Positions 22,082 to 59,808 are shown, numbered from the stretch's first letter. The stretch is DNA of 64,000 bases from Leptonemataceae bacterium (GCA_965227295.1 OZ245742.1:3616001-3680000), one strand, 5' to 3'. Made by a program: numbers and translations. Notes: a model not told the origin generated them from the letters alone.

Positions 22082-22211
22082 TCTTCGCGTCAGCGATTGG
22101 AAGGGTCGCGCGTAGCGCGAGTCCGGAGCGAAGCGCAGGACCGAAGGCGAAGCCGTCGCCCTGGAAAGCGCGGTCGGAAGGCGCCTGGGCCTGGCGCCTT
22201 CCGAGACGCCC
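22082..22211 (+). repeat. Structured intergenic repeat, copy A
   Basis: TCTTCGCGTCAGCGATTGGAAGGG...CCCTGGAAAGCGCGG...GACGCCC; aligns by eye with copies B-F. Confidence 0.9.
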
Positions 22212-22251
22212 AATGAAATCGCATCTTGTCTTGACTAACTTCTGTAAGCGT

Positions 22252-23262
22252 TCACTTACGCCGCCGCGCGCGCTCAATCAACCACACCAGCATCACCGAA
22301 AACCCGTAGAGTCCCAGCAGCAGCGTTCCCATAATCAAGAGCGACAACGGGTCGGGCGGCGTAATGGCGGCCGAGAAAACGAAGATGCCCGTGACGAAAA
22401 CCTTCCAGGTGGCCCGATGCCAGGCCATGGTTACAATTCCCAGGGCACCCAGGATGACGACGACCAGAGGCATTTGAAACATGATGCCCGCGCCCACGTG
22501 CAACAGGAACAGGAAGTTGTAGTACTTCTCCACGGTGGTCTGCGGCGCGATGCCCTCGGGCAAAATCTCCACGAACATGAACTGCAGCGATAGCGGGAAG
22601 ATGTAGAACCAGCACACAGCCATGCCCGTCCAGAAGAGCAGTGTAGAACAGAGGACGATGCCGTTGCCCAGCAGCGCGGCGCGGCGGCTGAGGGCGGGGG
22701 CCACAAAGCCCCACAGGATATACGTTAACACGGGGAGCGCCGTGGCGAGGCCGGTAATGAAACTGACTTTGATGTAAACTTCCATCGGCCCGACGACACT
22801 CTGGAGCAGCAATCTTTCGCCGGTGACCTCGGTGTAAGGCCCGATGAGAAAACGATGGATGTACGTGCTGAACACACCGGCCGCCACACTGAACGTTACC
22901 AAAACACCGATCATCCAGAGGATGCGGACGCGCAGTTCTTCCAGGTGATCGCCCACGGACATGTACTTTTCGCGCGGGTCGTCGTCGTGATAGTCGGCGT
23001 CGAAGCCGTCATCGTGCGGATCGTGGTCGGTAACGGGTGGCTGGTCCGGCGGAGCAGGGGGGCCGCCGACGACCGCATCTTTGCGGTAGCTACCGGTGGG
23101 TACCAGCGTGGGCCGGCGGTCGGTCTTCCGGGGCGCTTTCTTGCGAGAGCGAGCGACTTTCTTGCGGGGCGTCGCACTCTTTTTCCGAGCGGCTTTCTTG
23201 CGGGATGCGGCCGTCTTTTTGCGCGCCGCGGCCTTGCGGGATCCCGATTTCTTCTTCGGCAT
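22252..23262 (-). CDS. tatC: Twin-arginine translocase subunit TatC with long basic N-terminal extension
   Basis: MSVGDHLEELRVR, WGFVAPAL, FQMP, AAITPPDP. Confidence 0.93.
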   Translation of the reverse strand: MPKKKSGSRKAAARKKTAASRKKAARKKSATPRKKVARSRKKAPRKTDRRPTLVPTGSYRKDAVVGGPPAPPDQPPVTDHDPHDDGFDADYHDDDPREKYMSVGDHLEELRVRILWMIGVLVTFSVAAGVFSTYIHRFLIGPYTEVTGERLLLQSVVGPMEVYIKVSFITGLATALPVLTYILWGFVAPALSRRAALLGNGIVLCSTLLFWTGMAVCWFYIFPLSLQFMFVEILPEGIAPQTTVEKYYNFLFLLHVGAGIMFQMPLVVVILGALGIVTMAWHRATWKVFVTGIFVFSAAITPPDPLSLLIMGTLLLGLYGFSVMLVWLIERARRRK

Positions 23263-23279
23263 GACTCAGGCGTGGTGGA

Positions 23280-23531
23280 TCAGCTTTTCTTGCTGCGACC
23301 GGCTTTCGTTTTCGAGGAATCTTTCTTTTTATCGACACCGTCGATGGTGACCGAGTCCTCGATTTCACCGCGGACGTTCGAGACTTCCTGCTCCGCGTCG
23401 CCCATGGTCTTTTTGAATTCGCGGATGCCGATGCCGAGGTCTTTGGCAAGCTGCGGAATTTTACGGCCACCGAAGAGGATGAGGACGATCAAGAAGACGA
23501 TTAATATTTCCCAGAATCCGAAATTGCCCAT
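23280..23531 (-). CDS. tatA: Twin-arginine translocase TatA/E
   Basis: GFWEILIV..LILFGGRKIPQLAKDLGIGIREFKK. Confidence 0.95.
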   Translation of the reverse strand: MGNFGFWEILIVFLIVLILFGGRKIPQLAKDLGIGIREFKKTMGDAEQEVSNVRGEIEDSVTIDGVDKKKDSSKTKAGRSKKS

Positions 23532-23698
23532 GAGACTGTTCCTGCGCCGAACCGATAATGATAGTAGTGCGGCTGGGCGCCCGGCCGTCGCCGGTTCTAC
23601 GGGCAGGAAACTGAGGTCCGGGAGATTCGGCCAGCAAAATGATTTAGAGTTGTCACGCTTTTTTGAGGCTGATACACTCTCGCAGGCGAGGTAATTCC

Positions 23699-24511
23699 GT
23701 GGCGGTCAGCAAGGAACAGAAGCATCTCTACAATGAAAAGGTCCGGCCGTACAAGAGCACGGCGGAAGACCTCAAAAAAGAAATCTCCACCGTGAAGGGG
23801 GCCGGGCGGCGGAACGCGAAGCTGGACCCTTACTTTCAGGTGAAGTCCGCGGTCCTGGGGGCCCAACGGGCCAACACCCTGGTGCAGATGTCCCGCCTGT
23901 CGCAGCAGATCCAGAACATCAAGAACGACAGTTACCTCAACGACGCTCGCAAAGAAATTTCCAGCCGACTTTCCGACCTCCTGAAGATCGTGGGCGAGAA
24001 CCTTGACGGCGGACTCACCGACAACGTCGACGAACTGGCAAAGATCTCACAGCTTACGCCGCTCCAGAAGTTCCATCTGCTTCAGGGACTCAAGGACGCC
24101 ATCGAGAACGTTCGCGCGGCCATGGGGGAGACCTCCAAGTGGCGCTGGTACTATCCGGACATGTATCTCAAGCTCGTGACCCTGGCCCGCAACCTCATGG
24201 ACTTCAAGCAGTTCGAGCGCACGAAGGATCCGAACGACGACAACTACCGGCCGCTTCAGGAGTACATGCGGTTTATGATGGAAGAGTCCCAGAATGCCGC
24301 TCAGGAATACCGCTCCAAGTACGAGCTGAGTACGAACGAGGTCGGCGACCTCCAGGTAATCCAGCGGATTTTCGAGATGCAGAAACGGGTCTACACGTTC
24401 ACCGGGCAGAAGGAGGAACTGAAAAAGGCCTCGATCTCCCTGGATAGCATCAAGGAAAAAATCGAAGCCCAGATGTCCGAAAAGAAGGGCGCCAAAAAGA
24501 AGAAAGGTTGA
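23699..24511 (+). CDS. Hypothetical helical protein
   Basis: GTG start after GAGGT; long ORF with host codon usage; no motif recognised. Confidence 0.75.
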   Translation: MAVSKEQKHLYNEKVRPYKSTAEDLKKEISTVKGAGRRNAKLDPYFQVKSAVLGAQRANTLVQMSRLSQQIQNIKNDSYLNDARKEISSRLSDLLKIVGENLDGGLTDNVDELAKISQLTPLQKFHLLQGLKDAIENVRAAMGETSKWRWYYPDMYLKLVTLARNLMDFKQFERTKDPNDDNYRPLQEYMRFMMEESQNAAQEYRSKYELSTNEVGDLQVIQRIFEMQKRVYTFTGQKEELKKASISLDSIKEKIEAQMSEKKGAKKKKG

Positions 24512-24557
24512 CGCTCCGGCCTTTCCTGGTTTGCTTATCGGGAAGGAGTGCCGAATT

Positions 24558-24872
24558 ATGTCCGTAAAAACCCTTACCGATGCCACCTACGATCAGGATA
24601 CCGCCAGCGGTACGGTGCTCGTCGATTTCTGGGCGGAGTGGTGCGGCCCGTGCAAGATGATCGCTCCCATTGTAGAAGAGCTTTCCGGTGAGATGGGCGA
24701 CGTCACCTTTGCCAAGCTGAACGTGGACGAAAACCAGCAGGTCGCTCAGAAGCTCGGCATCACGTCGATCCCCACGCTCATCCTGTACAAAGACGGCCAG
24801 CAGGTAGACAAGGTCGTCGGTCTCATGCCGAAGCCCCAGCTCAAGAGCTTCATCGAGAAACACAACGGCTGA
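24558..24872 (+). CDS. trxA: Thioredoxin
   Basis: DFWAEWCGPCK, SIPTL; AAGGAG RBS. Confidence 0.96.
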   Translation: MSVKTLTDATYDQDTASGTVLVDFWAEWCGPCKMIAPIVEELSGEMGDVTFAKLNVDENQQVAQKLGITSIPTLILYKDGQQVDKVVGLMPKPQLKSFIEKHNG

Positions 24873-24879
24873 GCCTTCC

Positions 24880-25215
24880 TCACTCCGACAGAACCTGCAA
24901 GAACACGCCGTGGTCGTGATCCCCGGCGCGTTCGCTGCGAACGTACACCGGAACGCCGAGTTCCAGCAGGGCGGACTCCTCGTCCGTGAGGACGACGGCG
25001 TGGCGGTGTCCCAGGGTTTCGTCGAGATCAAACACCCGAATTCCGGATCGTAGCAGGCGCAGGGAGAACGCATTCGTCGTGTGGCTGTGCAGCGCCGTCG
25101 TTTCCACCCGGGCCTGAAGCCGGCCATCCTCGCTACCGGACGTACAATGTGCCACCTGGCCGGTCAGGAGCGGGATGATGATCATTCCTGTGATTTTCTG
25201 GATGCGCCGGTTCAT
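24880..25215 (-). CDS. Small exported His-rich protein
   Basis: MNRR..hydrophobic..VAHC; HSH, GHRH, DHDH motifs. Confidence 0.6.
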   Translation of the reverse strand: MNRRIQKITGMIIIPLLTGQVAHCTSGSEDGRLQARVETTALHSHTTNAFSLRLLRSGIRVFDLDETLGHRHAVVLTDEESALLELGVPVYVRSERAGDHDHGVFLQVLSE

Positions 25216-25367
25216 GCTGTCCGCCTTGACTCAATTTGCATGGCTGCGGAGCCGATTTTAGAAAGGTTGTCTCGTATTTCGATGATTTCCGGGATTTTTT
25301 TAGTGTTAATTAGCTTTCTTTACGGAAAGGTGGCCTTCCAGTTCATGGAGAGCGGAACGGTAGATTC

Positions 25368-27539
25368 ATGGCTTTAACGAAGGTTGAGTTATCGGCTCCT
25401 TATACGTCGCTGCCCCGGGGCGGCTACCTGGTAGAGACGTCCGTCGGCTACATTCAATTCGGTTCCCCGCCGGAGACGATCAAAGACACGATGATGCTGC
25501 CGCGCAGTACGCCGCAGATCTTCGTCCTGCCGAACAAGTTTTTCCACGTGGAGAAGGGCATCTCCGTCGCCGAGCTGGAATTCCCGATCTACTACAATCA
25601 CTTCCTCCGCCAGAAGAAAACCTACATCGTCTGTACCCGGGAACAACGCGAGCAGTTGAAGATCGTGTTGAACGAGGCCGTCTTCGGTCCGGAGATTGTG
25701 GACCTTGCCTCGGAATTCGTCGACGGCGAGTCCACGTTCGGTTTCCCGGACATGGTCAAAGAGATGGATCACTTCCGCGGCGGCCGGGAACTGGACGACC
25801 TGGTGAAGTTCGTGATCTTCAAAAACAACCAGGTGCGGCTGAACAACGTCACGATCACGAAACTGGAGAACGAAAATTTCCGCCTGGAAGATACGGACTG
25901 GAACTCGCGTACCGAACTTCCCGGCGGCGTGGACTTTAAGATCATTTACGATACGGGAAAGCGGCCGGTGGAGCCCTACAAGCCGCCGCTGTTGGGCATT
26001 ACGTGCCTGGGACCGTCCCACGGTTTCGATCCCGAGGAAAACACCAGCGGTTTCTTGCTGTGGATCAATCACCAGGGCATTATGGTGGACCCGCCGGTGA
26101 ACTCGACGGAGTGGTTGCGCGAATCCAACGTCAATCCCAAACTCATTAACAGCATCATCTTAACTCACTGTCACGCCGATCACGACGCCGGCACGTTTCA
26201 AAAGATTCTCGAAGAAGGCAAGATTACCATCTACTCCACGGAGACGGTGATGCACTCCTTCGTGCGCAAGTACCACGGCCTTACGAAGATTCCGGTCAAA
26301 GAACTCTTTTCGCTCTTCGACTTCGTGCCGGTGGTCATCGGCAAGATGTACATCATCAACGGTGCCGAGTTTCGCTTCAATTACGCCCTGCATTCCATTC
26401 CGTCCCTGAGCTTCGAGTTTTTCTTTCAGGATCAGTCGTTCATCTATTCGTCGGATCATCTCAACGATCCCGACCGTTGCGCTCAGTTGCTCGAAATGGG
26501 CATCCTCACGGAAAGCCGCTATCGTGATCTCATCGAATTTCCGTGGCATCACAAAATGATCTATCACGAGGCCGGTATCCCGCCGTTGCATACGCGCATC
26601 GATTACCTGCGTTCATTGCCCGAGGACGTGCAGAAGCGCATCACGGTGTATCACATCGCGAAAAAGGACATGCCGGCGGACTCGCATTTGAACCTGGCGA
26701 CCTTCGGGATCGAAAACACGTACTATCCGGAGACCACGCCGCCGAAACACGAGACGGCCTATCGTTTGCTGGACGCCCTGGCCAACGTGGACATCTTCCG
26801 GGATTTCCCCATTGCGAAGTCGAAAGAGTTTCTAACGATTGTCGAACGTAAGATCTACGAGCGTGGTGAGCGCATCATCGAGAAGAACAGCCCGGGCGAT
26901 AAGTTTTTCATTATCGTTTCGGGGAACGTGCGGGTCGAGGGCCTGGACCATCTCCAGGATGCCGACGAGGGCAAACGCTTCGGCTCGTACGAGTACTTCG
27001 GCGAAGCCTCGCTGATTATGGATCAACCGCGGAGTGCCGACGTCATTGCCGAGACTCAGGTCGAGGCGCTAACGATCAACAAAACGAAGTTTCTGAACTT
27101 CATAAAGGGCTCCGGGCTGAACCAGAAGTTCGCGCGCCTGGCGGAGATCCGTCGCACCGGTAGTTGGGAGACGCTGTCGAAGTCGCGTTTCTTCCGGTAC
27201 ACCACGTCGGCGCAGAAGACCCAGTTGGAACTGCTCGTTTACTTTCGAACCATGCGCATGTCGGATCTGCTGATTCGCCAGGGCCTTACGTTCGACGAAG
27301 CTTACATTATTAAGACCGGTACGGTGGACGTGCTCCGCCACGGCCGCCTGGTGGAAGCCCTGGGCCCCGGCGACTTCTGCGGGGAGATCTTCAAACTCCA
27401 GAAGAACACGCCGTCGGCCTACGATTTTAAGGCCACTTCGAATCTCGAGGTTTACGTGATTCGTCGGGAAGACCTGATCTACTACATCACCGAAAACCCG
27501 GGCGTGTACATGCGCCTGAACTACGTGTACGGGAACTAA
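25368..27539 (+). CDS. Metallo-beta-lactamase-fold hydrolase fused to two cNMP-binding domains (putative cyclic nucleotide phosphodiesterase)
   Basis: THCHADHD, HSIP, YSSD; cNMP motifs YFGEASL..PRSADV and GDFCGE. Confidence 0.8.
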   Translation: MALTKVELSAPYTSLPRGGYLVETSVGYIQFGSPPETIKDTMMLPRSTPQIFVLPNKFFHVEKGISVAELEFPIYYNHFLRQKKTYIVCTREQREQLKIVLNEAVFGPEIVDLASEFVDGESTFGFPDMVKEMDHFRGGRELDDLVKFVIFKNNQVRLNNVTITKLENENFRLEDTDWNSRTELPGGVDFKIIYDTGKRPVEPYKPPLLGITCLGPSHGFDPEENTSGFLLWINHQGIMVDPPVNSTEWLRESNVNPKLINSIILTHCHADHDAGTFQKILEEGKITIYSTETVMHSFVRKYHGLTKIPVKELFSLFDFVPVVIGKMYIINGAEFRFNYALHSIPSLSFEFFFQDQSFIYSSDHLNDPDRCAQLLEMGILTESRYRDLIEFPWHHKMIYHEAGIPPLHTRIDYLRSLPEDVQKRITVYHIAKKDMPADSHLNLATFGIENTYYPETTPPKHETAYRLLDALANVDIFRDFPIAKSKEFLTIVERKIYERGERIIEKNSPGDKFFIIVSGNVRVEGLDHLQDADEGKRFGSYEYFGEASLIMDQPRSADVIAETQVEALTINKTKFLNFIKGSGLNQKFARLAEIRRTGSWETLSKSRFFRYTTSAQKTQLELLVYFRTMRMSDLLIRQGLTFDEAYIIKTGTVDVLRHGRLVEALGPGDFCGEIFKLQKNTPSAYDFKATSNLEVYVIRREDLIYYITENPGVYMRLNYVYGN

Positions 27540-27549
27540 GTTCTTCGCG

Positions 27550-28350: not shown

Positions 28351-28351
28351 C

Positions 28352-29458: not shown

Positions 29459-29523
29459 ACACAGCCGAATGCCGGGGACGAGAGCCGACGTAAAGGCAAA
29501 TCCCGATCGTCCCCACGCACCGC

Positions 29524-29551
29524 TTGAAAAACTTGACTCACCGGTCATAAT
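29524..29551 (+). promoter_or_regulatory. Candidate sigma70 promoter of the AAA-VWA gene
   Basis: TTGAAA-16 nt-CATAAT, 16 nt upstream of ATG 29568. Confidence 0.35.
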
Positions 29552-29567
29552 AAATCGAACTGACCGC

Positions 29568-32726: not shown

Positions 32727-32736
32727 GAACTTTTGC

Positions 32737-32760: not shown

Positions 32761-32780
32761 GGTTTGCGGTGAGCTTGATT

Positions 32781-32895
32781 TTTCGCGCCAGGGATTGGAA
32801 GGGTCGCGCGTGAGCGCGAGTCTTTGCGTAGCAAAGACCGAAGGCGAAGCCGGAGCCCTGGAAAGCCCGACCGCCGCAACGCGGCGGGGGCGCCC
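32781..32895 (+). repeat. Structured intergenic repeat, copy B
   Basis: TTTCGCGCCAGGGATTGGAAGGG...CCCTGGAAAGCCCGA...GGCGCCC. Confidence 0.9.
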
Positions 32896-32979
32896 AAAAG
32901 ATGCTTATCCGTTTTACTATACGATGATTCCGCGCCGTTGACGAATGTCGGGCGCGTTTGCGCGATAGCAGAGCTGAGT

Positions 32980-38162: not shown

Positions 38163-38600
38163 ATGGCGGCGGAGCCGGAGTTGAACTTTGAAGAGGTCGC
38201 GAATCCATCGCCGGCCCTCCAGGAAGCGCTCTGGAATAACTTGCAAACTTTCAGCGATTCGAAGCTAAAGAACCCCGCTCTAGCACACACCGGCTCCGTG
38301 GCAGTCATTGCCCGGGAAGGGCAGCGCCTGGTCGCCGGCATGCTCGCCGTAATCTACGTCGGCGGCATGAACCTGCAATGCCTGTGGATCGACGAACCCC
38401 TGCGCGGCCACGGCCTGGGCAAACGCCTGCTCGACGCCGCCGAGGACATCGCGCGTCGGCATAAATGCAGCGTGATTTTCGGGCATTCTTTCGGATTCCA
38501 GGCGCCGGAGTTTTATCTGAGAGCCGGCTACGAGGAGTTCGGTTCCATTCCCGAATTCCCGCCGGGCTACGGCTGTATTTTTCTGCGCAAGCTGTTATGA
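38163..38600 (+). CDS. GNAT N-acetyltransferase
   Basis: LWIDEPLRGHGLG, SFGFQAPEFY..GY. Confidence 0.88.
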   Translation: MAAEPELNFEEVANPSPALQEALWNNLQTFSDSKLKNPALAHTGSVAVIAREGQRLVAGMLAVIYVGGMNLQCLWIDEPLRGHGLGKRLLDAAEDIARRHKCSVIFGHSFGFQAPEFYLRAGYEEFGSIPEFPPGYGCIFLRKLL

Positions 38601-39008
38601 TGTTCGCAGATAATCCCGCATGGCCTCATGCACGCCGTCCGGCCACGGCGTAAGTTTCTTTTCGTCGACATTAGCGGAGCCGTACAGAAAATCCATGTAG
38701 CAACGTTCTTCGCCGTTGCAAGTGGCTCGCAGGTGTATTTGGGCGTGGGTATCCCGCAGGCGTTTGACGTAGAGTTCGAAGTCCAGGACGTTGTTTAAGA
38801 ACGTGGGTTTGCGAAAGTGGGCGTCGATGTGCATGGCGGGCAGGCCGTGGCGCTCCTGAATGACCAGGCGATGGAAGCTGTAGCCGATGTGCGCCCACCA
38901 ATCTTCCAGTACCTCCACGAAGAGATTGAAGTACTGCGGCGTAAAGACGATGCCGCCGGGATCGCAGTGCTGGAAGCGGACGAGTTTCTGAGTCGTGAAC
39001 GTTTTCAA
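38595..39008 (-). CDS. 4HBT-type acyl-CoA thioesterase
   Basis: VRFQHCDPGGIVF; TTG start at 39008 (upstream part of the track ORF overlaps the next gene). Confidence 0.85.
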   Translation of the reverse strand: MKTFTTQKLVRFQHCDPGGIVFTPQYFNLFVEVLEDWWAHIGYSFHRLVIQERHGLPAMHIDAHFRKPTFLNNVLDFELYVKRLRDTHAQIHLRATCNGEERCYMDFLYGSANVDEKKLTPWPDGVHEAMRDYLRTS

Positions 39009-39049
39009 AAGGCGAGCATCGTTCCGCTTTCGCGGGGCCGCAAGTACTT

Positions 39050-39640
39050 TCAATTCCGGCTGAACTTCGGTCGCCGCACGGCAAATCCCAGGATCAGCTT
39101 TGTCAGGAAGAGCGGGGCCAGGGCGTGGAGCGCGATGGGCTCCGGCGCGAATATGGTTCCGGCGCAGATGCCGCAGACCAGCAGGGCCGCGCCCAGGTTT
39201 TGCTGGAGTTCCGGATCGTTCACGGAGTTGACGAGGAAGGCAGCCGCGAGGGCGAAGACGCCGACGTACGCGAAGTAGGCCCACTGCTCCGGGAAGAGGA
39301 GTGTAAACAACGCCGGCTGCAAAACGTGCAGCAACAGAAAGCCGATGCGTCGACCATTCGCGCGCTGATAGTACTGATTTGTGGAACTGGAGAGATTCGC
39401 CGTGACGCCGCCGATGATGTCGACCAGCAGCACGGCGAGCAAAGCGGACTTCCAGAGCGGGAGCGGATACGGATACAGGGCGATGAAGAACAACACGGTG
39501 CCGGCCAGGGCGGAGGCGTAGACCAGGAGGATTTGCGAAAGGGGCGCGGTTTCGCCGTGCAGTTCGTGCAGGAATTTCGGGATTCGGATGTCGTTCACAG
39601 TTGAGGATGATAGCACGGTCGCGACGACATGCAATGACAT
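39050..39640 (-). CDS. Membrane protein of unknown function
   Basis: About 6 TM helices; HELHG, DIIGGVTAN; start uncertain. Confidence 0.7.
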   Translation of the reverse strand: MSLHVVATVLSSSTVNDIRIPKFLHELHGETAPLSQILLVYASALAGTVLFFIALYPYPLPLWKSALLAVLLVDIIGGVTANLSSSTNQYYQRANGRRIGFLLLHVLQPALFTLLFPEQWAYFAYVGVFALAAAFLVNSVNDPELQQNLGAALLVCGICAGTIFAPEPIALHALAPLFLTKLILGFAVRRPKFSRN

Positions 39641-41561: not shown

Positions 41562-41643
41562 TACCCGGGGCGGGACTTGAACCCGCACGACCGAAGTCCC
41601 GGGATTTTAAGTCCCGTATGTCTACCAATTCCATCACCCGGGC
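41562..41643 (-). tRNA. tRNA-Leu(TAA)
   Basis: Minus strand GCCCGGG/CCCGGGT; CGGGA CT-TAA-AA TCCCG; long variable arm. Confidence 0.96.
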
Positions 41644-41674
41644 ATAGGTGAACGCAGCAGGGGAGGCTGCGATG

Positions 41675-41745
41675 AGGCGTCGACCGGATTTGAACCGGTG
41701 ATGGGGCTTTTGCAGAGCCCTGCCTTACCACTTGGCTACGACGCC
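41675..41745 (-). tRNA. tRNA-Cys(GCA)
   Basis: Minus strand GGCGTCG/CGACGCC; GGGCT CT-GCA-AA AGCCC; U73. Confidence 0.96.
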
Positions 41746-41845
41746 GATCAGCGCGGCCGGCGAATCCCGGCCGTATCGGACAGACTCTCCGCGGAGCAGG
41801 GGGCGTCAAGTCTTTGGAAAACGGGTGACGTTCGTGGATGCCGAT

Positions 41846-41887
41846 TCTTGCGTTAGGGATCCGCAGGGTGGCCCGAAAGGCCAGTCC
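41846..41887 (+). repeat. Structured intergenic repeat, partial copy F (5' part only)
   Basis: TCTTGCGTTAGGGATCCGCAGGG-TGGCCCGAAAGGCCA-GTCC, then breaks off against copy D. Confidence 0.75.
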
Positions 41888-41893
41888 GCTTTT

Positions 41894-42006
41894 GGGCGCC
41901 TCGCCGCTTTGCGGCGACCGGGCTACTCCGGGCTCCGCTTCGCTCCGGCCTCGCCTGCGGCGAGTCTCGCGCTAACGCGCGACCCTGCGTATCCCTGGCG
42001 CGAAGA
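41894..42006 (-). repeat. Structured intergenic repeat, copy D
   Basis: Reverse complement TCTTCGCGCCAGGGATACGCAGGG...CCCGGAGTAGCCCGG...GGCGCCC. Confidence 0.9.
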
Positions 42007-42012
42007 GAAAGA

Positions 42013-44103
42013 CTAAGAATTCAACAACGCCCGCAGATTATCCAGGCTGTGCACTGGCCGTTCGCACGCAAGCTGCCGGCAAACGTAGAACGTATCTTTC
42101 TCCGCGACGGCACGATCCGCAAGCAGCGGCACAATCTTCCCGGCCTCGTCACGATTGTCGCCGTGGGCGACGGCCTGCACCGACTCGCCGCTCTGTTCGG
42201 TGGCGAGGGCGTTCAGAACTTCGCGCAAATCATCCAGAGTTCCCGGTGTGACGAGAGCAATCTCCGCCGGCGGTTCCAGGAAGTACGCGAACGTTTTTAA
42301 TAGAAACGAATGCGCCGCGCCCTGTTCGCTGAGCGACGTCGGAAAGGCCGCAAAGATTTTGCGGGCGCGCTCATGGTACGCCGCGGGCTCGACGCCGTAG
42401 AGCGCGAGCGTATGAAACAACCGTGCCGCCGCCGAATTGCCGGAGGGTTCCACACCGTCGTACGACTCGATGGAGCGCACGATGAGGTCGTCGCTGTTCT
42501 CGGACGTCTCGTAGTAGGCGCCGCCGGCTCCGTCGAAGCGCGTGATGATCTGCGCGGCCAGTTCCTGCGCACGTTCGAAGAAGCGCGGCGCAAAGCCGGC
42601 GCGGTACAGATCCAGGCACGCGTTGCCCAGGAGCGCGTAGTCCGGCAGTGTCGCCGGGATGCGCGCTTCGCCTTCGCGGTAACGGCGCAGCAACGAACCG
42701 TCGGCCTGGCGCATCGTCTGCCAGAGAAAGTCCGCGGCCTTTTCGGCGCGCGCGTAGAGTTCGGTGTCGTCGAAGGCTCGTGCGGCCTGGGAGAGGGCCG
42801 AGATCATGAGGGCGTTCCAGGACGTGAGAATCTTATCGTCGCGCAGCGGGCGGATGCGTTTGTTGCGTTCCGCGAGCAGCGCCGTGCGGGCGCGGTCCAC
42901 GGTCTTTTGCCAGGCCGCGGCGTCGGTGCCGGCGGGCAGGCCGGCGACGAAACGTTCCCGGGGCAGGCCCTCGTGCAGGATGTTCTTGCCCTCCCAGTTG
43001 CCGCGCATGGACAGCCCCCAGAATTCGGCGAGGAGCTTGCGTTCGTCTCCGGAAAAACCGGCCGAGCTTAATGTTTGATCAAAATCACTTAAGCTCCAGA
43101 CGTAGAACTTGCCTTCCTCACCTTCGCTGTCCGCGTCCTCCGCCGAGTAGAACGCCCCTTCCGGCGAGGTCATGTCCCGACGCAGATACTCACAGACGTC
43201 CCGGCCCCAATCACGGTAACGTTCGTTGCCGGTGAGACGATAGCTATCGGTCAGGGCCCACAGAAAGAGCGCGTTGTCGTAGAGCATCTTCTCGAAGTGC
43301 GGGACGAGCCAGTCGTGGTCCGTGGCGTAACGCGAAAGTCCGCCGCCGATCTGATCGTAGATGCCGCCGCGCCGCATGTGGTCCAGGGTTTCCTCCACCA
43401 TGCGCAGGGCGTGGGCCTCGCCGCTGCGGCGATAGTACGTGAGCAAAAAGAGCAGGCCCATGGACGGCGGAAACTTGTTCGGCCCGTTGCTTGTGAAACC
43501 GCCGCTGTATTCGTCGAAGAGCTGGGAGTACTGGCGGAACGTCGCCTCCAGGGCCTCCGCTCCCGGAATTTCACCGCCGCCGGAAGCCGACTCCTGTTTC
43601 AGGAAGTTGTGCAACGCCGTGGCGGACTCGTCGATCTTCGCGCGGTTGTTCTGCCACATGTTATCGATGGACTCGAGGACCTGGCGAAACGACGGCCGCC
43701 CGAAGGCCGGCTGCGGCGGGAAATACGTACCGCCGGTAATGGGCAATAACTCCGGCGTGAGGAACATGTTCAACGGCCAGCCGCCGTGTTGGCCGGTGGC
43801 GTGCAGGGCCTTCATGTAGATCTGATCGACGTCCGGTCGTTCCTCGCGGTCGAGCTTAATCGCTACAAATTTTGCATTAAGGATGGCGGCGGTGTCTTCG
43901 TTCTCGAAGGACTCGCGTTCCATGACGTGACACCAGTGGCACGTGGCGTAGCCGATGCTGAGTAAGATCGGTTTGTTTTCCGTGCGAGCCTTAGAAAAGG
44001 CTTCGTCGCCCCAGGGGTACCAGTCGACCGGATTGTGGGCGTGTTGCAGCAAGTACGGCGACTTTTCGTTGGCGAGGCGGTTCGTGTGTTTGGGTTCGGA
44101 CAT
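42013..44103 (-). CDS. YyaL/SSP411-like thioredoxin-domain protein
   Basis: [47 protein letters not shown]. Confidence 0.95.
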
Positions 44104-44182
44104 GCTGGCTCGAAGTTAAATGAGAATCCGGGAGATCGGAAAGGGGAATCAAGAAAGGGAAAACAAAGAGTAAGACTAAGAT

Positions 44183-44300
44183 GGGCGCCCCCGCCGCTGG
44201 TGCGGCGGTCGGGCTGCTCCGGGCTCGCTATTCGCTCGGCCTCGCGACTTCGTCGCGAGTCTGGCGCTACGCGCCACCCTCCGCATCCCTGGCGCGAAGA
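44183..44300 (-). repeat. Structured intergenic repeat, copy E
   Basis: Reverse complement TCTTCGCGCCAGGGATGCGGAGGG...CCCGGAGCAGCCCGA...GGCGCCC. Confidence 0.9.
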
Positions 44301-44330
44301 GACGAAACTCTGGTGATGCGCTGCGGATGG

Positions 44331-44723
44331 TTATTCCGCGGCCGGGGCATTCAGGGCCTGGGCTTCGCGTTGTTCGCGCAGTACGTCCGGTTCGTCTGGG
44401 ATGTTCCGGCCGAAGATGTCGATCACGGAAAAGCTCACCAGGATGACGAACAGGATAATCGGGAACAGGAGTCCGTACCCCTTTACCAGGGTCGTCTCAT
44501 AGCGCATGTGCATGAATACCAGGATGACCAATGAGGCTTTGATCGTCGCGATGATCATGGCGATGACGACGTTGGTGACGAAGCCGCCGCCGATGACGAC
44601 GCCCCAGTCCACATAAGAGACGGCCACTGTGATGACCGTCAGCACCAGCAGGGCGATGCCGGTGAGGATGTAGTTTTTCCGGGGGACAATGTGCCCGCGG
44701 CTCTCTTGATCAGGTATATGCAT
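44331..44723 (-). CDS. Cytochrome c oxidase subunit IV
   Basis: LLVLTVITV, IATIKASLV..FMHM. Confidence 0.88.
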   Translation of the reverse strand: MHIPDQESRGHIVPRKNYILTGIALLVLTVITVAVSYVDWGVVIGGGFVTNVVIAMIIATIKASLVILVFMHMRYETTLVKGYGLLFPIILFVILVSFSVIDIFGRNIPDEPDVLREQREAQALNAPAAE

Positions 44724-49108: not shown

Positions 49109-49228
49109 ATTTTGTTGTTTTCGCTTCAGCTCTCTTATGAAAAAATGACGGAAATCTGCGCCGTCAAGCTGGAACCGGCAAACGGAACGAAGTCCGCGCA
49201 GTACGGAAATTATTCGGAGAACTTTCGC

Positions 49229-49822: not shown

Positions 49823-49831
49823 TTCGGACGC

Positions 49832-50749: not shown

Positions 50750-50753
50750 AACC

Positions 50754-51445: not shown

Positions 51446-51701
51446 GGATTCTTTCCTTTCGTCGAGACAGCAGTTTGAGTACGGTCGTCTCACCTTTCTC
51501 ATAGTCCACGAAGCTGCCGAAATTGGCGCCGAAAACCCCACCCGGTCAACCAGAAAATGTCACACCCCCATGCGATACTAAGCCGGGATCAAGTGTCATT
51601 GCGATTCGCCGGAGGACCCGCCGCGTCGATACGAATCACCTCAAAACATTCCCGCCGGATTTGCTAATTTCCGCAGATCGTCTCGCCGGGCGATCTCCCG
51701 A

Positions 51702-51728
51702 TTGACATGTCTCCGGATCTGCTATAAT
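51702..51728 (+). promoter_or_regulatory. Consensus sigma70 promoter with extended -10 upstream of the rpn-like gene
   Basis: TTGACA (51702-7), 15-nt spacer, TG-c-TATAAT (51720-8); GGGGAGG RBS before ATG 51755. Confidence 0.65.
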
Positions 51729-51754
51729 GGAAGCACTCCTCGGGGAGGCCGATC

Positions 51755-52558: not shown

Positions 52559-52579
52559 GCCCGCATCCCCGACCATCTC

Positions 52580-54823: not shown

Positions 54824-54878
54824 TGTTCTCCTCCGGGCTAACAGAATAGAAACGAATCCGCCTGTTGCACAGTGAAAT

Positions 54879-55865
54879 TCAAGTAGATGTCACACCGCGA
54901 CTTTGCTGGCTCGCGTAATAGACATGTTTGCGTGCACGCATCACGTCGCCCAGGGGCCGGTGTTCCGCGAGCGCGAGCCACGGATCGAAGACGGAGGCCT
55001 CAGCCTCTTCCTGGTACGTGCGCATCTCTCCGCTTTCGAAGTCCTGCTGTGGAATCGTAAGCCGGGCCACGGTCGTGTACGGCGAATCCCAGATTACGGA
55101 GGCGTCTTCAATCGGCGTGCTCTCTGCATTCGTGAAGAACTGCAACTGTAGATCGTACACGAGCGGGCCGCCGGCCAGGTGTGACCGAAAGTCCGCGCCC
55201 CAATCCTTCGAGGCGGCGGACTTCGGTTCACGATTCGAAGTCGGCACCAGACGAACGCGAGCGGCGTACGGGCCGCAGGCGATGGGAGCGGCGCTGAAAA
55301 AAGACTCCGTCGCGAAACCGGTAAAGGGTTTGCGAAACGCGGCGGCCGTCGCGCCGATTTTCTTGAACGCCCCGAAGATGCCGTAGGTACCGAAGAGATG
55401 ACCGAGGAGACTGCCCGTCCCCCGGGCTGCGGCTTCCACGAGGTCGATGAACTCCGCGCTCTTCGGAAACGAAAACGCCTCGTGATTGATCAGCAAGAAA
55501 CATTGAGCATCCGTGTCCGCGCCCAGCGCGCCGGGGCCGTTCACGCCTTCGACTCGCAGAGCGAAGCCGCGGATGTCGGGTTCGGCGTCCGGCTTCACAT
55601 CGAGGCCGCCGTTAGAAAGTCGGACCGCGGCCCTGTATCGTCCCGGCTGCGCAAAGAAACCGTGGCGAGCATGCTCGGGAAGATCGGCCAGGACTTCGAC
55701 TTCGGCCGGTACAGCCAGGAGCTGTTTGCGGTGCAGGGCACGCCCGCGGCCGTACTGTGCGGATTTCTGCGATTGGATGGCGGTGAACCGGCGCGCGTAA
55801 TCGGCGAAGCGTTCGTCCTCGTCGGCGGCGACGTCCTCGTGCCAGTTGGTTGCGGGGGTTGCCAT
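54879..55865 (-). CDS. Catalase-related heme protein (short catalase fold)
   Basis: RALHRK, VRLSNG, DIRGFA, PIEDAS..W, HRPLG..MRARKHVY. Confidence 0.8.
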   Translation of the reverse strand: MATPATNWHEDVAADEDERFADYARRFTAIQSQKSAQYGRGRALHRKQLLAVPAEVEVLADLPEHARHGFFAQPGRYRAAVRLSNGGLDVKPDAEPDIRGFALRVEGVNGPGALGADTDAQCFLLINHEAFSFPKSAEFIDLVEAAARGTGSLLGHLFGTYGIFGAFKKIGATAAAFRKPFTGFATESFFSAAPIACGPYAARVRLVPTSNREPKSAASKDWGADFRSHLAGGPLVYDLQLQFFTNAESTPIEDASVIWDSPYTTVARLTIPQQDFESGEMRTYQEEAEASVFDPWLALAEHRPLGDVMRARKHVYYASQQSRGVTST

Positions 55866-55890
55866 GGAACGGAAGAAGAGACGAACTCTG

Positions 55891-55963
55891 AGCCCACGGT
55901 CGGACTTGAACCGACGACCCCATCATTACGAGTGATGTGCTCTACCAACTGAGCTACGCGGGC
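55891..55963 (-). tRNA. tRNA-Thr(CGT)
   Basis: Minus strand GCCCGCG/CGTGGGC; CATCA CT-CGT-AA TGATG. Confidence 0.96.
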
Positions 55964-56046
55964 AATTGCAGCAGAACCGGCGGGTCATCCCGCCGGTTCC
56001 GTCAAGATTTTCGAAGGTTGGTTGCCAGGCAACCGGAATCCACGGC

Positions 56047-58383
56047 TCAGTGCGAGGCGCCGGCCGTTTCTTTGGGCGCGAAGCCGCCGGAGGAGATGGC
56101 GCCGCTGCCGCCTTTCATCGAAGAGGCCACAATCTCGGCGATGTCCAGGACCTTGACGTTTTCTTCCAGGGACATATTCTTCACACCGTCGGTCATCATT
56201 ACCATGCAGAACGGACACGCCGTGGCGATGAGGTCCGCGCCGGTGTCTACGAGCTGACCGGTGCGCTTCATGTTGACGCGCTCGTACTCTTCTTCCATCC
56301 ACATCTGGGCACCGCCCGCGCCGCAACACAGCGACGTGCGATGGTGATCGCTGGCCTCGGAGATATCCATGCCCGTGGCCTCGCGGATGAGGTTGCGGGG
56401 CTCGTCGTAGATTTCGTTGTAACGTCCCAGGTAGCACGAGTCGTGGTACGTCGCGCGGCGGTTGGACATTTTTTCGACTTCCGCCGGCTCCATTTCGATT
56501 TTGTCCGTGCGCAGAAGGTCCTCGATGAAGTCCGAGTGGTGCTGCACCTCGTAGTTACCACCGAGTTGCGGGTACTCGTTCTTCAGCGTGTTGTAGCAGT
56601 GCGGGCACGCCGTAACGATCTTCTTCACATTGTAGTTATTCAGCGTTTCCACGTTCATCTGCGCCAGCGTTTGGTACAGATACTCGTTGCCGCCGCGGCG
56701 GGCGGAGTCGCCCGTGCAGTTTTCTTCGGTGCCGAGGATGGCGAAGTTCACGTCCGCCTTCTGCATGATCTGCACGAACGAACGCGCGATGGTTTTGTTG
56801 CGATCGTCGAAGGAAGCGGCGCAGCCGACCCAGTAGAGGACGTCCACGTTGGAGTCCTCGGCCATGGTCTTCACGCCGAGATCGGCGCACCAGTCGCCGC
56901 GGGTGTGAGCGCCCATGCCCCAGGGATTGGAGTTGTTTTCCATGTTCTGGAAAGCGACCTGCAATTGTGCGGGGAAGCGCGCTTCGGCCAGCGCCAGGTT
57001 GCGGCGCATTTCGTAGATGGCTTCGAGTTGATTGTTGCCGACCGGGCAGGCCTCGACGCAGGCCATGCAGCTCGTGCACGCCCACAGTTCTTCGTCGGTG
57101 ATGTACGGATCGCCGATGACCGGCGACGCCGCCTGTGTGCCGTCCTCGGAAGGCCCGGCCCAGATGGAACCCCAGTGATCGAGCATGGAGTGTTTGGTAT
57201 CCACCATGATCTTTTTGGGATCGAGGGGTTTGCCGGTACGGTTGGCCGGACACTCGACGGTGCAGCGCCCGCACTCGATGCAGGACAGGCCGTCCATGAG
57301 GCTGGTCCAGCGCAGTTCACTGACGTTGCCCGCGCCCCAGACCGCCGTTTCGGATTCCAGGTCCATCATGGCCATTTGCCCGTTCGGAGCTGCGGTGCGC
57401 ATGAAGTAGTTCATGGGTGCGAAGATGAGGTGCGAGTGCTTCGAGAGCGGTACGACGATCATGAAGACGTAGACCGTTGAGATGTGCGTCCACCAGGCGA
57501 AGTTCCGCACTGCGGTGGCGGTGACCTCGTCGGTCATGCCGACGCTCTGCAAGATGTAGCCTACGGCGTTCGTGATCCAGATGGCGTGGGCGCCGCCGTC
57601 GAGAAAAGACTGCGCCGCGGTCCCCACGAGCGTGGACGTCATGAGCGTGCCGATGAGCAGCAGGACGATGGCCGACTGCGTCGACGGAATGTCCAGGGCC
57701 TTTGCGCGACGAATCCAGCGGCGGTACGCGAAGTAGCCGAGACCCGTGAGAACGAAGAGCGAGAAGTACTGAACAAAGGCTTCGTAGATTTCCGTGCCGG
57801 AACCGATGAGCACCGCGAACACGCCGGCGAATTGGGCCAGGGCAACGGCGATCAGAATCCATTGCAGAGCGACATTGTTGCGGAAGCCTTTGCGCTTCGC
57901 GTCGCCCGTGGTCTTGCCGGACCAGCGGCCCGGATTGATATTCAGGAAAATGAAGAACGACAGAAAGATGCCGGCCGTAAGCGCGGCGACGATGAGGCCG
58001 GCCTGAAGGCCCGTGGGGGTGAGGCCGAGCCAGGTGTAGTCCGTGAGGTAGAACTCGTACGGGTTCATGCCGCTCATCTTAAAGATGGACCAGGCGTTGC
58101 CCGCGACCATTTGCGAAGTGGTGTGCACCAGGTACGAGATGAAACCGTAAAAGATGAAGGCGTGCATGAGTCCGCGGATGGGATGCTTGAACAGCTTCAT
58201 CTGGAAGAGGACGTTGAGGATGAACGAGCGGATGCGCGTCCCCCAGTCGGCGAGTTCGGTGGCCGGCTGGACCTTACTCATGAGCTTGAGGCGCATGAAG
58301 ATGGCGTATACGAAGAAGAGGTTCGCGACGCCGAAGAATGTGAGGTGAAACAAATGCGTGAGGATGTCAGCCGTTGCGGGCAT
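56047..58383 (-). CDS. Membrane-bound Fe-S oxidoreductase (FadF/HdrD-like, two CCG domains)
   Basis: N-terminal TMs; CIECGRCTVECP, CTSCMACVEACP, WVGC, TACPHC, YHDSCYLGR, CCGAGG, TACPFC. Confidence 0.92.
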   Translation of the reverse strand: MPATADILTHLFHLTFFGVANLFFVYAIFMRLKLMSKVQPATELADWGTRIRSFILNVLFQMKLFKHPIRGLMHAFIFYGFISYLVHTTSQMVAGNAWSIFKMSGMNPYEFYLTDYTWLGLTPTGLQAGLIVAALTAGIFLSFFIFLNINPGRWSGKTTGDAKRKGFRNNVALQWILIAVALAQFAGVFAVLIGSGTEIYEAFVQYFSLFVLTGLGYFAYRRWIRRAKALDIPSTQSAIVLLLIGTLMTSTLVGTAAQSFLDGGAHAIWITNAVGYILQSVGMTDEVTATAVRNFAWWTHISTVYVFMIVVPLSKHSHLIFAPMNYFMRTAAPNGQMAMMDLESETAVWGAGNVSELRWTSLMDGLSCIECGRCTVECPANRTGKPLDPKKIMVDTKHSMLDHWGSIWAGPSEDGTQAASPVIGDPYITDEELWACTSCMACVEACPVGNNQLEAIYEMRRNLALAEARFPAQLQVAFQNMENNSNPWGMGAHTRGDWCADLGVKTMAEDSNVDVLYWVGCAASFDDRNKTIARSFVQIMQKADVNFAILGTEENCTGDSARRGGNEYLYQTLAQMNVETLNNYNVKKIVTACPHCYNTLKNEYPQLGGNYEVQHHSDFIEDLLRTDKIEMEPAEVEKMSNRRATYHDSCYLGRYNEIYDEPRNLIREATGMDISEASDHHRTSLCCGAGGAQMWMEEEYERVNMKRTGQLVDTGADLIATACPFCMVMMTDGVKNMSLEENVKVLDIAEIVASSMKGGSGAISSGGFAPKETAGASH

Positions 58384-58497
58384 AGAGAGGTGCTCCTGTC
58401 GACACTACGTTAAGTCTAGGCCAGCAACGTTTCGGGAAAACTCATCCACGTCCAGAAAAAAGCTGTCCCTGTCAGTTTGGCCGATTTTTTTTACTGT

Positions 58498-59598
58498 ATG
58501 GCTTCTATCTTCCCCGCCCACGACACCGACGCCATCCTGGAGAAGGCCCTGGACGGCGGTCGCATCACACCGGACGACGCGCTTCGGCTCTACAACGAGG
58601 GCGACTTCATCAAGATCATGGGCGTAGCCCGGGAATTGAGAAGCCGTCGCAATAACCCCGATCTGGTGACGTACACCATGTTCCGCGTGGTGAACTACAC
58701 GAACTTCTGCAACGTGGACTGTGCTTTTTGTAGTTTCATGGAGGAGTACGGCTCCGAGCGGGGCTACGTCCTCACGGCCGAGCAGGTCGTCGAGAAGATG
58801 CTTGAAGCCGGTAAGATGGGCTGCGACCAGATGTTCCTCCAGGGCGGAGTTTATTCGGAGCTGAAGCTGGACTATTACCTGGGCCTCATCCGGGCCGTGA
58901 AAGAGCAGGTCGGTGAACACGTGCACATCCGTGCGTTTTCGCCGGTGGAACTGGAAGGTCTGGCGGAGATCAGCGGCCTGGGCCTGCGCGGCGTCGTCCG
59001 CGAACTCAAGGCCGCGGGTATGGACAGCGTGCCCGGCGCCGGCGCCGAGATCTTAACGGATCGCATGCGCAAAATTCTCTCGCCGAAGAAATCAAACGTC
59101 GCGGGTTGGGTGAAGGCCATGGAGACCTGTCATGAAGAAGGCCTGCCCGGCAGTGCCAACGTGGTCTTTGGTTCGGAGGAAAGCCGCGAAGAAGTCATCG
59201 AACATCTAAACGTAATCCGCGATCTTCAAGATCGCACCGGCGGCTTCAAGTCGTTCATCCCCTGGACGTTCCAGCCGCAGACGAAGAAGTTTCATGTCCG
59301 TCCCGTGGGCACGCCGGAGTTCTTGAAGGTGCTCGGCATCTGCCGCATCTTTTTGGATAACATCGATCACATTGAAACGTCGCTCATGGTGCTCGGTCAG
59401 GGCGTGGGTTCGATTGCGTTGAACGCGGGCGCCGACGACATCTCGTCCATCGTTATCGAAGAGAACGTGTTGCGCAGTTACGGCATCAAGTCCGAAGAGA
59501 AGGCGCGGCAGTTTATTCGAGACAGCGGGTTCACGCCGATGAAGCGGAACCTGGTGTATGAGCATGTGGAAGGCCAGCGAGAGCCGGCGGGGGTTTGA
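58498..59598 (+). CDS. mqnC: Cyclic dehypoxanthinyl futalosine synthase (CofH/MqnC radical SAM)
   Basis: [47 protein letters not shown]. Confidence 0.85.
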
Positions 59599-59633
59599 TC
59601 ACCGGGGCTCTGAGGGGATCGGGGCGTTTTTAC

Positions 59634-59657
59634 CGCGGAGGCGCTGAGGACGCGGAG
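59634..59657 (+). repeat. Heptamer triad CGCGGAG-G-CGCTGAG-GA-CGCGGAG
   Basis: Read directly; about 30 nt upstream of repeat copy C; same spacing as 32737-32760. Confidence 0.75.
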
Positions 59658-59686
59658 GGTGGATCGGGTGCGCAGGGGGAGTCGAC

Positions 59687-59808
59687 TCTTGCGTCAGCGA
59701 TTGGAAGGGTTGCGGCGTAGCCGCAAGTCCGGAGCGCGAAGCGCGCAGGACCGAAGCGATAGCGGAGCCCTGGAAAGCGCGGCCCGAGCGTAAGCGAGGG
59801 AGACGCCC
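59687..59808 (+). repeat. Structured intergenic repeat, copy C
   Basis: TCTTGCGTCAGCGATTGGAAGGG...CCCTGGAAAGCGCGG...GACGCCC. Confidence 0.9.

Follow-up and report, generated by a model that had tools for sequence, protein, structure and literature searches.

Two kinds of folded, non-coding DNA element described in bacteria are relevant to the present work, namely interspersed folded repeats and single-strand initiation (ssi) signals. The repeats include the repetitive extragenic palindromic (REP) sequences, the bacterial interspersed mosaic elements (BIMEs) and the REPIN-RAYT systems, the last named after the REP-associated tyrosine transposase (RAYT). The ssi signals are exemplified by the complementary-strand origins of G4, St-1 and alpha3 and by ssiA and ssiB of RSF1010, which are clusters of hairpins of about 100–140 nt on a strand that exists as single-stranded DNA (ssDNA). 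According to passages of a 2026 review (PMC13037366), DNA mini-hairpins of the types GCGNAGC and GCGNNAGC are extraordinarily stable and poorly bound by single-stranded DNA-binding protein (SSB), and they occur where primase starts on the origins of G4, St-1 and alpha3 and also in ssiA of RSF1010. An element with properties of both kinds was found in a stretch of 64,000 nucleotides from a Leptonemataceae bacterium (GCA_965227295.1 OZ245742.1:3616001-3680000), referred to here as a whole as the window, which holds five full copies (A to E) and one partial copy (F). We propose, with a probability of roughly 0.45 and partly by inference, that this strand-specific, non-coding DNA element of about 120 nt is an SSB-resistant, folded-ssDNA module of the ssi type that has been amplified in this genome as a BIME-like repeat. 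In the literature searched and in Rfam 15, a covarying four-way-junction DNA fold of 120 nt that occurs in chromosomes of several phyla, in plasmids and in microviruses is undescribed, and the literature search found no prior description of repeats with GNA loops.

The element resembles REP, BIME and REPIN-RAYT systems in being a high-copy, extragenic sequence with a folded single strand and inverted neighbours separated by linkers, in its depletion from promoter-bearing gaps and in its lineage-specific bursts. It differs from REP sequences in size and complexity, as a REP is one palindrome of 20–40 nt with a conserved 5' tetranucleotide, whereas the element measures about 120 nt and has seven helices. 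Moreover, it has neither a GTAG nor a CGTC head, it is not accompanied by a RAYT gene, and its core spans phyla, phages and plasmids. With the G4-type origins and the ssi signals of RSF1010 it shares the dimensions of a hairpin cluster and mini-hairpins of the GCGNAGC or GCGNNAGC type, described as SSB-resistant in passages of the same review (PMC13037366), as well as its location in a non-coding gap of microviruses and beside a primase-type gene on plasmids. However, in place of three separate hairpins it forms a closed four-way junction with a side hairpin, its conservation extends over several phyla, and it is present in about 200 chromosomal copies. A further comparison can be made with Frpo, the ssDNA promoters in leading regions of conjugative plasmids, which are folded DNA of the transferred strand upstream of anti-defence-type genes, with the folded strand as the template (passages of PMC11541004). 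Frpo mimics a duplex sigma-70 promoter with -35 and -10 elements, is about 300 nt long and is known from enterobacterial plasmids, whereas the consensus of the present element is GC-rich and by eye displays no hexamers resembling TTGACA or TATAAT.

In the fold of the element, two arms are enclosed by an outer stem, P1. One arm stacks the helices P2, P3 and P4 and leads into a four-way junction that bears three small hairpins (H1 to H3), and the other is a variable hairpin, H4, which precedes the 3' strand of P1. The unit comprises about 120 model positions with 38 pairs and 3 branch points; the conserved region begins approximately 6 nt before P1 (TCTTC), is preceded by a weak leader of about 14 nt, and ends with GGCGCCCAA followed by an A-rich run. 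All of the stems reported in a preliminary description of the window were seen in the alignment of the five full copies, including the alternative outer stems (GCGTC/GACGC versus GCGCC/GGCGC), the second stem (GCG/CGC versus GGG/CCC), the third (TT/AA versus TAC/GTA and TGC/GCA), the invariant GGG/CCC pairing, the three inner hairpins and the fourth hairpin at the 3' side.

The fold and its covariation are real. When mutual information was calculated for all column pairs of a sequence-only alignment, long-range pairs ranked first, with 93–99% Watson-Crick combinations; the top pair, 11-111, occurs in 4 Watson-Crick types and is paired in 98% of the copies, and is followed by 18-85, 27-39, 44-58, 10-112 and 14-89. 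Two covariance models were used, R1, built from the five window copies, and R2, used for the wider searches. In 65 genomic copies aligned to R1, 91.9% of the 2,339 cells are paired, compared to 77.2% in shuffles, and double changes are present in 27 of the 38 pairs (289 cells). The covariation score of this set is 0.313, against 0.088 for shuffles (0 of 500 as high) and at most 0.064 for slid partners. Similar values were obtained for 77 model-confirmed copies from other genomes, the cross-phylum loci among which were selected by a motif that fixes helix H3: 92.0% of cells paired versus 70.5%, a score of 0.311 versus 0.084, and double changes in 33 of the 38 pairs. The claim that the fold is maintained by compensatory change thus stands in both larger alignments. 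The accompanying claim, that structure rather than sequence is conserved, does not, since an invariant core sequence is common to several phyla and is conserved in addition to the structure. The minimum-energy DNA folds of copies B and D are identical to the covariation model, with z-scores of -3.19 and -2.89, and the opposite strands have -2.55 and -0.97.

Elements with a structure maintained by covariation are usually taken to be RNAs. The preliminary description had left the choice between ssDNA and an RNA element of the 3' untranslated region (3'-UTR) open, and both the wobble counts and the loop types favour folded ssDNA. In RNA helices, G·U pairs are tolerated far more than A·C combinations. 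The 65 genomic copies contain 17 G·T or T·G cells versus 22 A·C or C·A cells among 2,274 (one invariant T·G being left out), and the cross-phylum set contains 28 versus 30 among 2,196. Unconstrained DNA folds of 129 copies gave 483 hairpin loops, of which 271 are triloops and 126 tetraloops. The reported predominance of C-GNA-G loops is borne out, as 224 of the 271 triloops are of the type GNA (GAA 107, GCA 73, GTA 37) and 247 are closed by a C-G pair; among the tetraloops 61 are GNNA, 23 are GNRA and none is UNCG. In addition, helices P3/P4 and many H2 hairpins hold symmetric GGA/GGA or GNA/GNA internal loops, and in many copies H3 reads GCGAAGC. In DNA, internal loops of these types have been described as sheared G·A pairs enclosing a stacked base. 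Both the G..A loop ends and the GGA/GGA loops are confined to one strand, their complements giving T..C loops, and with DNA parameters the sense strand outfolds the antisense strand in 123 of the 129 copies. In its pairs and loops, the fold resembles single-stranded DNA rather than RNA.

One alternative is a structured RNA transcribed from the folded strand, which could be a small RNA, a ribozyme-like motif or an element of the 3'-UTR. Own crude gene calls (4,365 open reading frames (ORFs), covering 85% of the genome) place 177 of 209 genomic copies between genes, the other 32 overlapping a called ORF by more than 30 nt. Of the intergenic copies 108 are co-oriented with the upstream gene (p 0.004) and 69 are antisense to it, and in co-directional gaps 64 copies are sense and 42 antisense (p 0.04). 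The co-orientation that was observed for all five full copies of the window therefore holds there but is not a rule of the family: with a genome-wide rate of 61%, five out of five (probability about 0.08) is a sample of a weak bias. Replication imposes no direction either. With the origin at about 1.18 Mb and the terminus at about 4.09 Mb, as judged from the GC skew, the folded strand corresponds to the leading strand in 109 copies and to the lagging strand in 100. Placement of the element is tied to neither transcription nor replication direction, and the absence of a wobble excess, the GNA mini-hairpins and this orientation-blind placement together point to DNA. A multibranch fold with conserved junction nucleotides does resemble functional RNAs, and both the sense excess described above and the fold of the microvirus copies, which lies in the mRNA sense, can be cited for a transcribed form. 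Nevertheless, the RNA explanation appears improbable to us, as G·U is no commoner than A·C, the loops are GNA triloops and GNYA tetraloops rather than GNRA or UNCG, more than a third of the intergenic copies are antisense to the upstream gene, and on the plasmids both flanking genes run antisense to the fold. The 3'-UTR interpretation in particular is not supported, given the antisense copies in co-directional gaps and the plasmid orientation.

Comparison to catalogued RNAs gave the same picture. At gathering thresholds the Rfam models yielded only 8 tRNAs in the window, and a permissive scan of 20 copies produced nothing at the cut-off, only weak matches to twister-sister and chance matches, in agreement with the earlier statement that the element could not be assigned to a named family. 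The best twister-sister match (RF02681, cut-off 34 bits), with 26.2 bits, is on copy E (window positions 44173-44253, minus strand, the 3' two-thirds of the copy), and other copies reached 15–20 bits, including 18–19 on two of them; copy D gave no match at E<=10 in a scan of 41700-44500, and copies A, B and C were covered by the gathering-threshold scan alone. These sub-threshold matches would favour a ribozyme-like RNA, but a genome search with the same model had a maximum of 20.2 bits, equally weak matches were found in 8 of 14 control genomes, and the P1/P2 pairing required by the model conflicts with the covarying outer stem, the model pairs being marked as non-canonical. We judge the signal to be a chance similarity of GC-rich blocks.

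The relation to Flavo-1 (RF01705, cut-off 42 bits), which was described as an RNA motif by Weinberg et al. 2010 (PMC2864571), is of a different nature. None of 20 genomic copies matched this model, and a search of the genome gave one match of 17 bits which is not a copy of the element, with control genomes also producing matches to this model. In 5 of 20 Bacteroidota loci, however, Flavo-1-like hairpins of 25–39.6 bits lie beside the element in inverted orientation (L166:41-106, L175:336-411, L142:335-410, L164:55-115 and L122:24-95, from Pedobacter and Chitinophaga). They are located 40–70 nt from the 5' end of the element on the opposite strand, and look like a regular head-to-head partner. 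The basal part of the Rfam consensus shares G-A-U-x-G-N-A-G / G-G-A-x-A-G-C and tandem GNA/GNA loops with the element, and both occur in Bacteroidota. Both are also indifferent to the direction of transcription: in passages of a transcriptome paper (PMC9723704), Flavo-1 matches are described as located 'indistinctly' in sense or antisense orientation relative to transcribed regions, and frequently outside these, which for a partly similar motif argues further against an RNA role of the element. On the other hand, Flavo-1 lacks the four-way junction, H4 and the outer stem, its 76 positions forming just one hairpin. Since the copies themselves do not match Flavo-1, while the hairpins are adjacent and the basal motif is common, the two are best regarded as related modules and not as the same family.

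The distribution of the element outside this genome was investigated with a 19-base core motif in a genome collection with one genome per species, for which we estimate about 17 matches by chance. At least 111 loci were found, and among the matches listed R2 confirmed 83 of 111 as full elements (75 among the first 100, 8 among the last 11). Of 80 titled loci among the matches listed, 58 were confirmed, and these are labelled Bacteroidota (39), Spirochaetota (13), Eubacteriales (2, one metagenome-assembled genome (MAG)), Competibacteraceae (1), Rubrobacteraceae (1), Pirellulales (1, a weak match of 28 bits) and unclassified (1); contigs can be misplaced when MAGs are binned. The 22 titled loci not confirmed by R2 include all those from Acidobacteriota, Streptomyces and a Thermoplasmata archaeon, and these taxa are not counted.

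Plasmids of Hymenobacter and two of Microcystis carry matches to the element as found by blastn, with R2 scores of 49.3 and 34.7 bits for two copies on one plasmid, and 44.4, 26.1 and 41.8 bits for others, the last being a Microcystis plasmid copy. In the three Hymenobacter plasmids examined, one copy is located 200–280 nt upstream of a gene for an ArdC-like zincin-metallopeptidase or of a small ORF preceding it. It lies on the template strand of the ArdC-like gene and is antisense to both flanking genes; a toprim-domain gene adjoins it, and genes for a topoisomerase, a coupling protein and a relaxase are nearby. In one of these plasmids an insertion encoding Abi and protease functions lies between the element and the toprim gene, and leaves the side facing the ArdC-like gene uninterrupted. 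According to passages of PMC11541004, conjugative plasmids express their leading-region genes from the transferred strand, in some cases via folded ssDNA promoters or ssi signals.

Among viral contigs, 4 of 8 motif-bearing loci were confirmed by the model, and two of these are microviruses of 4.6 and 4.3 kb that encode a Phage_F capsid protein, a pilot protein and a replication initiator, all genes being on one strand. Although their Rep proteins are only 37% identical, both have the element on the strand with the genes, within the gap that precedes the pilot-protein gene. These copies are minimal, as H1 is absent and H2 and H4 are short. Microviridae package the coding-sense strand. A first pattern used on the viral collection gave no match, and two broader scans added just four contigs, three of 17–42 kb and the fourth being L304; a 14-base viral pattern mostly picked up chance matches, with 6 model matches in 100 loci.

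The genome in which the element was discovered is a single contig of 5,938,550 bp, with a completeness of 93.55% as judged from marker genes. When it was searched with an nhmmer profile made from the window's five full copies, 206 matches were obtained, and 221 after one iteration; with the iterated profile 209 copies have E<1e-5, of which 129 are full length, and some copies that seem truncated at the 3' end (profile positions 7-93) are in fact full copies with a very long H4. The copies follow a strict arrangement: the 35 pairs with a spacing below 400 nt comprise 20 tail-to-tail and 15 head-to-head pairs and none in tandem (p 6e-11). Head-to-head copies are separated by a linker of approximately 14 nt with a recognisable conserved consensus. 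The tail-to-tail linkers are AT-rich, measuring 66–76 nt in 10 of 14 listed, with a cluster at 70–76 nt, and 23–35 nt in the other 4; those of about 72 nt at genome positions 3764144-3764218 and 5814621-5814692 are alike, and such linkers may represent a third, AT-rich module in the mosaic. Besides 106 copies in co-directional gaps, 44 are located in convergent and 27 in divergent gaps, at densities of 0.22, 0.24 and 0.12 copies per kb, respectively. Copies avoid the promoter-bearing divergent gaps. Alignment of genomic copies shows that modules have been exchanged among them.

Alternating orientation and characteristic linkers are the hallmarks of BIMEs, and both are seen in neighbouring copies of the element. 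In an alternative view the element would be a repeat of the REP/BIME kind, either selfish or domesticated by the host, whose fold would serve its own propagation or DNA housekeeping (protein binding, supercoil management or protection of transcript ends), and whose copies on plasmids and phages would be incidental. The inversion of all 35 neighbouring pairs with the conserved head-to-head linker, the halved density in divergent gaps and the shuffled modules are what such a repeat would display, a full copy travels as a passenger in one insertion sequence (IS) of the IS5 family, and plasmids and phages could have acquired a copy from Bacteroidota, which are rich in the element as judged from their share of the titled confirmed loci among the matches listed. 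We nevertheless consider this unlikely, albeit less so than an RNA role. The element has the same place and strand in two microviruses with strongly diverged Rep proteins, in genomes of 4.3–4.6 kb that leave little room for junk, its syntenic position on plasmids has outlasted an unrelated adjacent insertion, and conservation of the core sequence across phyla points to a shared partner.

A distinct association of the element was noted in an array of PT-HINT and DUF6973 genes (genome positions 2280300-2282400 and neighbours within 2279750-2289711) that resembles cassettes of polymorphic toxins. Its spacers are units of 143 nt, 99% identical, each of which contains a copy of the element.

Presence of the element differs between relatives, as expected for an element that moves or turns over. 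Two genomes of the same genus are syntenic with the window at 66–79% identity, and model R2 found none of the five full window copies at the syntenic sites in either of them (96.8 kb, all five sites covered). When the best 89 candidates were considered, each of these genomes gave 2 matches versus 89 of 89 in the present genome, although candidate matches in such a genome-wide scan of relatives are not equal to copy numbers. Of 41 genomes searched, counting the present one, 29 carry the element family, with 13 of 24 from the same bacterial family as this genome and 15 of 16 from a sister family. At one locus in the sister family the element is retained where the flank is 94% identical, and was not found in four genomes at 79–84%; in one of these four the flanks are adjacent, 355 nt apart compared to 1,644 nt when filled, and in the other three the far flank is located elsewhere. 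In a same-genus genome, a copy on a 219-kb contig is surrounded by an rve integrase gene, an acyl-CoA dehydrogenase gene and large ORFs without Pfam match.

Within the genome itself a paralogous pair of sites was identified, one filled and one empty (5891230-5891270 versus 4444699). At the filled site the copy with a leader of 20–22 nt is bounded by two direct repeats of 6–7 nt (CAAAAAG in the orientation of the element), and a single repeat is present at the empty site. This could reflect an insertion with duplication, or a deletion between microhomologies. The leader at the filled site holds a perfect inverted copy of 11 nt of the adjacent flank, and a hairpin results from the flank, the direct repeat and the leader taken together; there is no such palindrome at the empty site. 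Duplication of the target site is not general for the family, as a k-mer test found it for 3 of 126 copies versus 3.8 in controls, and no terminal repeats exist beyond the 5-bp outer stem, unlike in miniature inverted-repeat transposable elements (MITEs). Among the sequencing runs listed, the stretch is contained in two DNA runs from one study and in no RNA run; in the DNA runs no junction skipping exactly one element was detected, with short-read contigs breaking at every copy.

These differences raise the possibility that the element is a non-autonomous transposon, moved as folded ssDNA by a nuclease encoded elsewhere, such as an HUH enzyme (RAYT or TnpA of the IS200/IS605 type), a rolling-circle Rep or relaxase, or another structure-specific enzyme. 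The strand-specific and DNA-like nature of the fold, its high copy number here with 2 of the best 89 candidates matched in each same-genus genome, the empty orthologous sites and the one filled/empty pair bounded by a direct repeat are all in line with this, and HUH enzymes are encoded by microviruses and conjugative plasmids alike. The proposed partner of the REP/IS200 type was not encountered, however. The one-contig genome has no match to Y1_Tnp (PF01797; RAYT/IS200), for which the same search was over the cut-off in 6 of 14 control genomes, nor to the MOB relaxase PF03432, for which control genomes were positive; for Y2_Tnp and Helitron_like_N there was no match in the genome, a result limited by the fact that these models matched nothing in the control genomes either. 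In addition, the replichore orientation bias typical of ssDNA transposition is not seen, target-site duplications are no more frequent than expected, and the same core occurs in replicons with unrelated HUH enzymes, which is more easily explained by a host factor. On balance such a transposon seems to us a poor candidate, at the same level as a structured RNA.

Two kinds of mobile DNA were found in physical association with copies. The IS5-family IS mentioned above holds a full copy, with a very long H4, between the stop codon of its transposase gene and its right end. At least three copies of this IS were examined (genome positions 38226-39631, which is L329:327-1732, 5697358-5698763 and 5236592-5237768); it encodes a transposase of 362 residues with DUF772 and DDE_Tnp_1 domains and has perfect terminal inverted repeats of 21 bp that are unrelated to the element. 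This passenger route explains just a handful of the element copies. Secondly, a group II intron is inserted in two different element copies (L331:541-2440, from genome position 2367840 onward, and from 2020597 onward). The insertion point is identical in both, in the 3' strand of P1, after H4 and xACG and before CCCA. The intron has a match of 133.9 bits to Rfam group-II-D1D4-3 as well as a domain V, and encodes a reverse transcriptase/maturase of 471 residues (RVT_1 and GIIM) without an endonuclease domain. Group IIC introns target a DNA hairpin plus short exon-binding sites, as described in passages of PMC3898094. The present intron can be assigned to group II only, and its site fits with H4 being available as a DNA hairpin.

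We propose that the functional form of the element is single-stranded DNA of the folded strand, which would act as such in vivo. The mini-hairpins with GNA or GNNA loops, in particular C(GNA)G, and the GNA/GNA internal loops would staple the fold, leaving a folded island free of SSB on DNA that enters the cell or exists as a single strand. The priming machinery of the host may then start the complementary strand at this island, and the ancestral role of the element would most likely be that of an ssi signal. In the present genome the module would have been amplified to about 200 copies in a BIME-like manner, with obligate inversion of neighbours. An ssi signal appears to be the most economical core function, given the contexts in phages and plasmids, whose DNA enters cells single-stranded, and the literature on mini-hairpins; the priming of complementary-strand synthesis by the element is proposed on the basis of these analogies.

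Several points weigh against our proposal. Folding in vivo and priming are predicted from sequence-level analysis, and both of the structure counts, for 65 and for 77 copies, rest on model-fitted alignments that lean towards the structure. The short versions from phage and plasmid are no more stable than shuffles under DNA nearest-neighbour parameters (z +0.81 for L204 and +0.29 for L061), and the minimum-energy fold of L061 fails to reproduce the covariation model. The number of microviruses is just two, and the other six confirmed viral contigs (five of them sized, at 17.6, 36, 38, 40 and 42 kb) may be prophage or host DNA; moreover, in the microviruses the folded strand is the mRNA sense, and these two cases by themselves are compatible with an RNA. 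The weak excess of copies co-oriented with their upstream gene could equally be produced by an RNA role. Homology to the G4-type origins is not supported by sequence, as neither copy B nor the copy of a microvirus had a blastn match among 50,697 phage records. The Hymenobacter plasmids share a backbone with 86–92% identity and therefore count as a single observation, and it is from gene content only that their region is putatively assigned as the leading region and the folded strand as the transferred strand. Finally, about 200 chromosomal copies without replichore bias have no obvious use in priming, and hence a second mechanism is needed for their amplification.

A broader version of the ssi proposal is that the element represents an ancient folded-ssDNA module, a host-independent 'start here' signal for the complementary strand that is used by microviruses and conjugative plasmids and has also colonised chromosomes. 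It possibly serves other DNA transmitted as a single strand across several bacterial phyla. We put this forward tentatively, as doubtful but worth stating: if true, such a universal module would be a DNA counterpart of a universal structured RNA, and would link replication origins to interspersed repeats. A true priming signal would name the complementary-strand origin of gokushovirus-like microviruses and would be the first ssi-type signal for conjugative plasmids of Bacteroidota. The element would also unite a replication signal and a genomic repeat family in one sequence, and it provides a compact natural DNA fold for structural study. Furthermore, covariation screens may misfile folded-DNA elements as RNA motifs, and Flavo-1 may be one of these.

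In the window, all six stretches of the preliminary description are present, with coordinates that agree within 1–3 nt (covariance model, or nhmmer for copy F), and the five full copies score 94–126 bits with the covariance models, and 106–126 bits with R1, which was built on these same five. Each begins 7–89 nt past the stop codon of a gene and is co-oriented with it, and the five genes named earlier were recognised from ORFs and Pfam domains. Copy A (22081-22213, plus strand; 106 bits with R1 and R2) is full length with a long variant of H4, and is located 29 nt past the stop of clpX inside the convergent clpX/tatC gap. The top-scoring copy, B (32779-32897, plus strand; 125–126 bits), is likewise full length and lies 55 nt past the stop of a gene for an AAA_5 ATPase of 1085 residues. 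The full-length copy C (59685-59810, plus strand; 100–106 bits) follows the stop of an MqnC-like radical-SAM gene (58477-59598) by 89 nt. Two full-length copies are on the minus strand: the 5' end of D (41892-42007; 106–108 bits) is 7 nt past the stop of a DUF255/YyaL-like gene (42013-44103, minus strand), and E (44181-44301; 94–108 bits) lies 31 nt past the stop of a COX4_pro gene (44331-44723, minus strand). The partial copy F (41845-41888, plus strand) was matched by nhmmer at profile positions 2-45 (E 2.8e-4). It consists of the 5' 44 nt alone, with the 5' strand of P1, P2, P3, the 5' strand of P4, H1 and the start of H2, and is placed tail-to-tail with copy D at a distance of 3–6 nt.

A weak model match (15.8 bits, E 0.36) at 62016-62092 on the minus strand shows the outer stem, P2 and H4 only, and is possibly a degenerate or minimal relative of the element, or else a chance match. 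The tRNA genes of the window number eight, with five clustered at 17218-18547, one in the region 55891-55963, and two at 41562-41745, just upstream of copies F and D.

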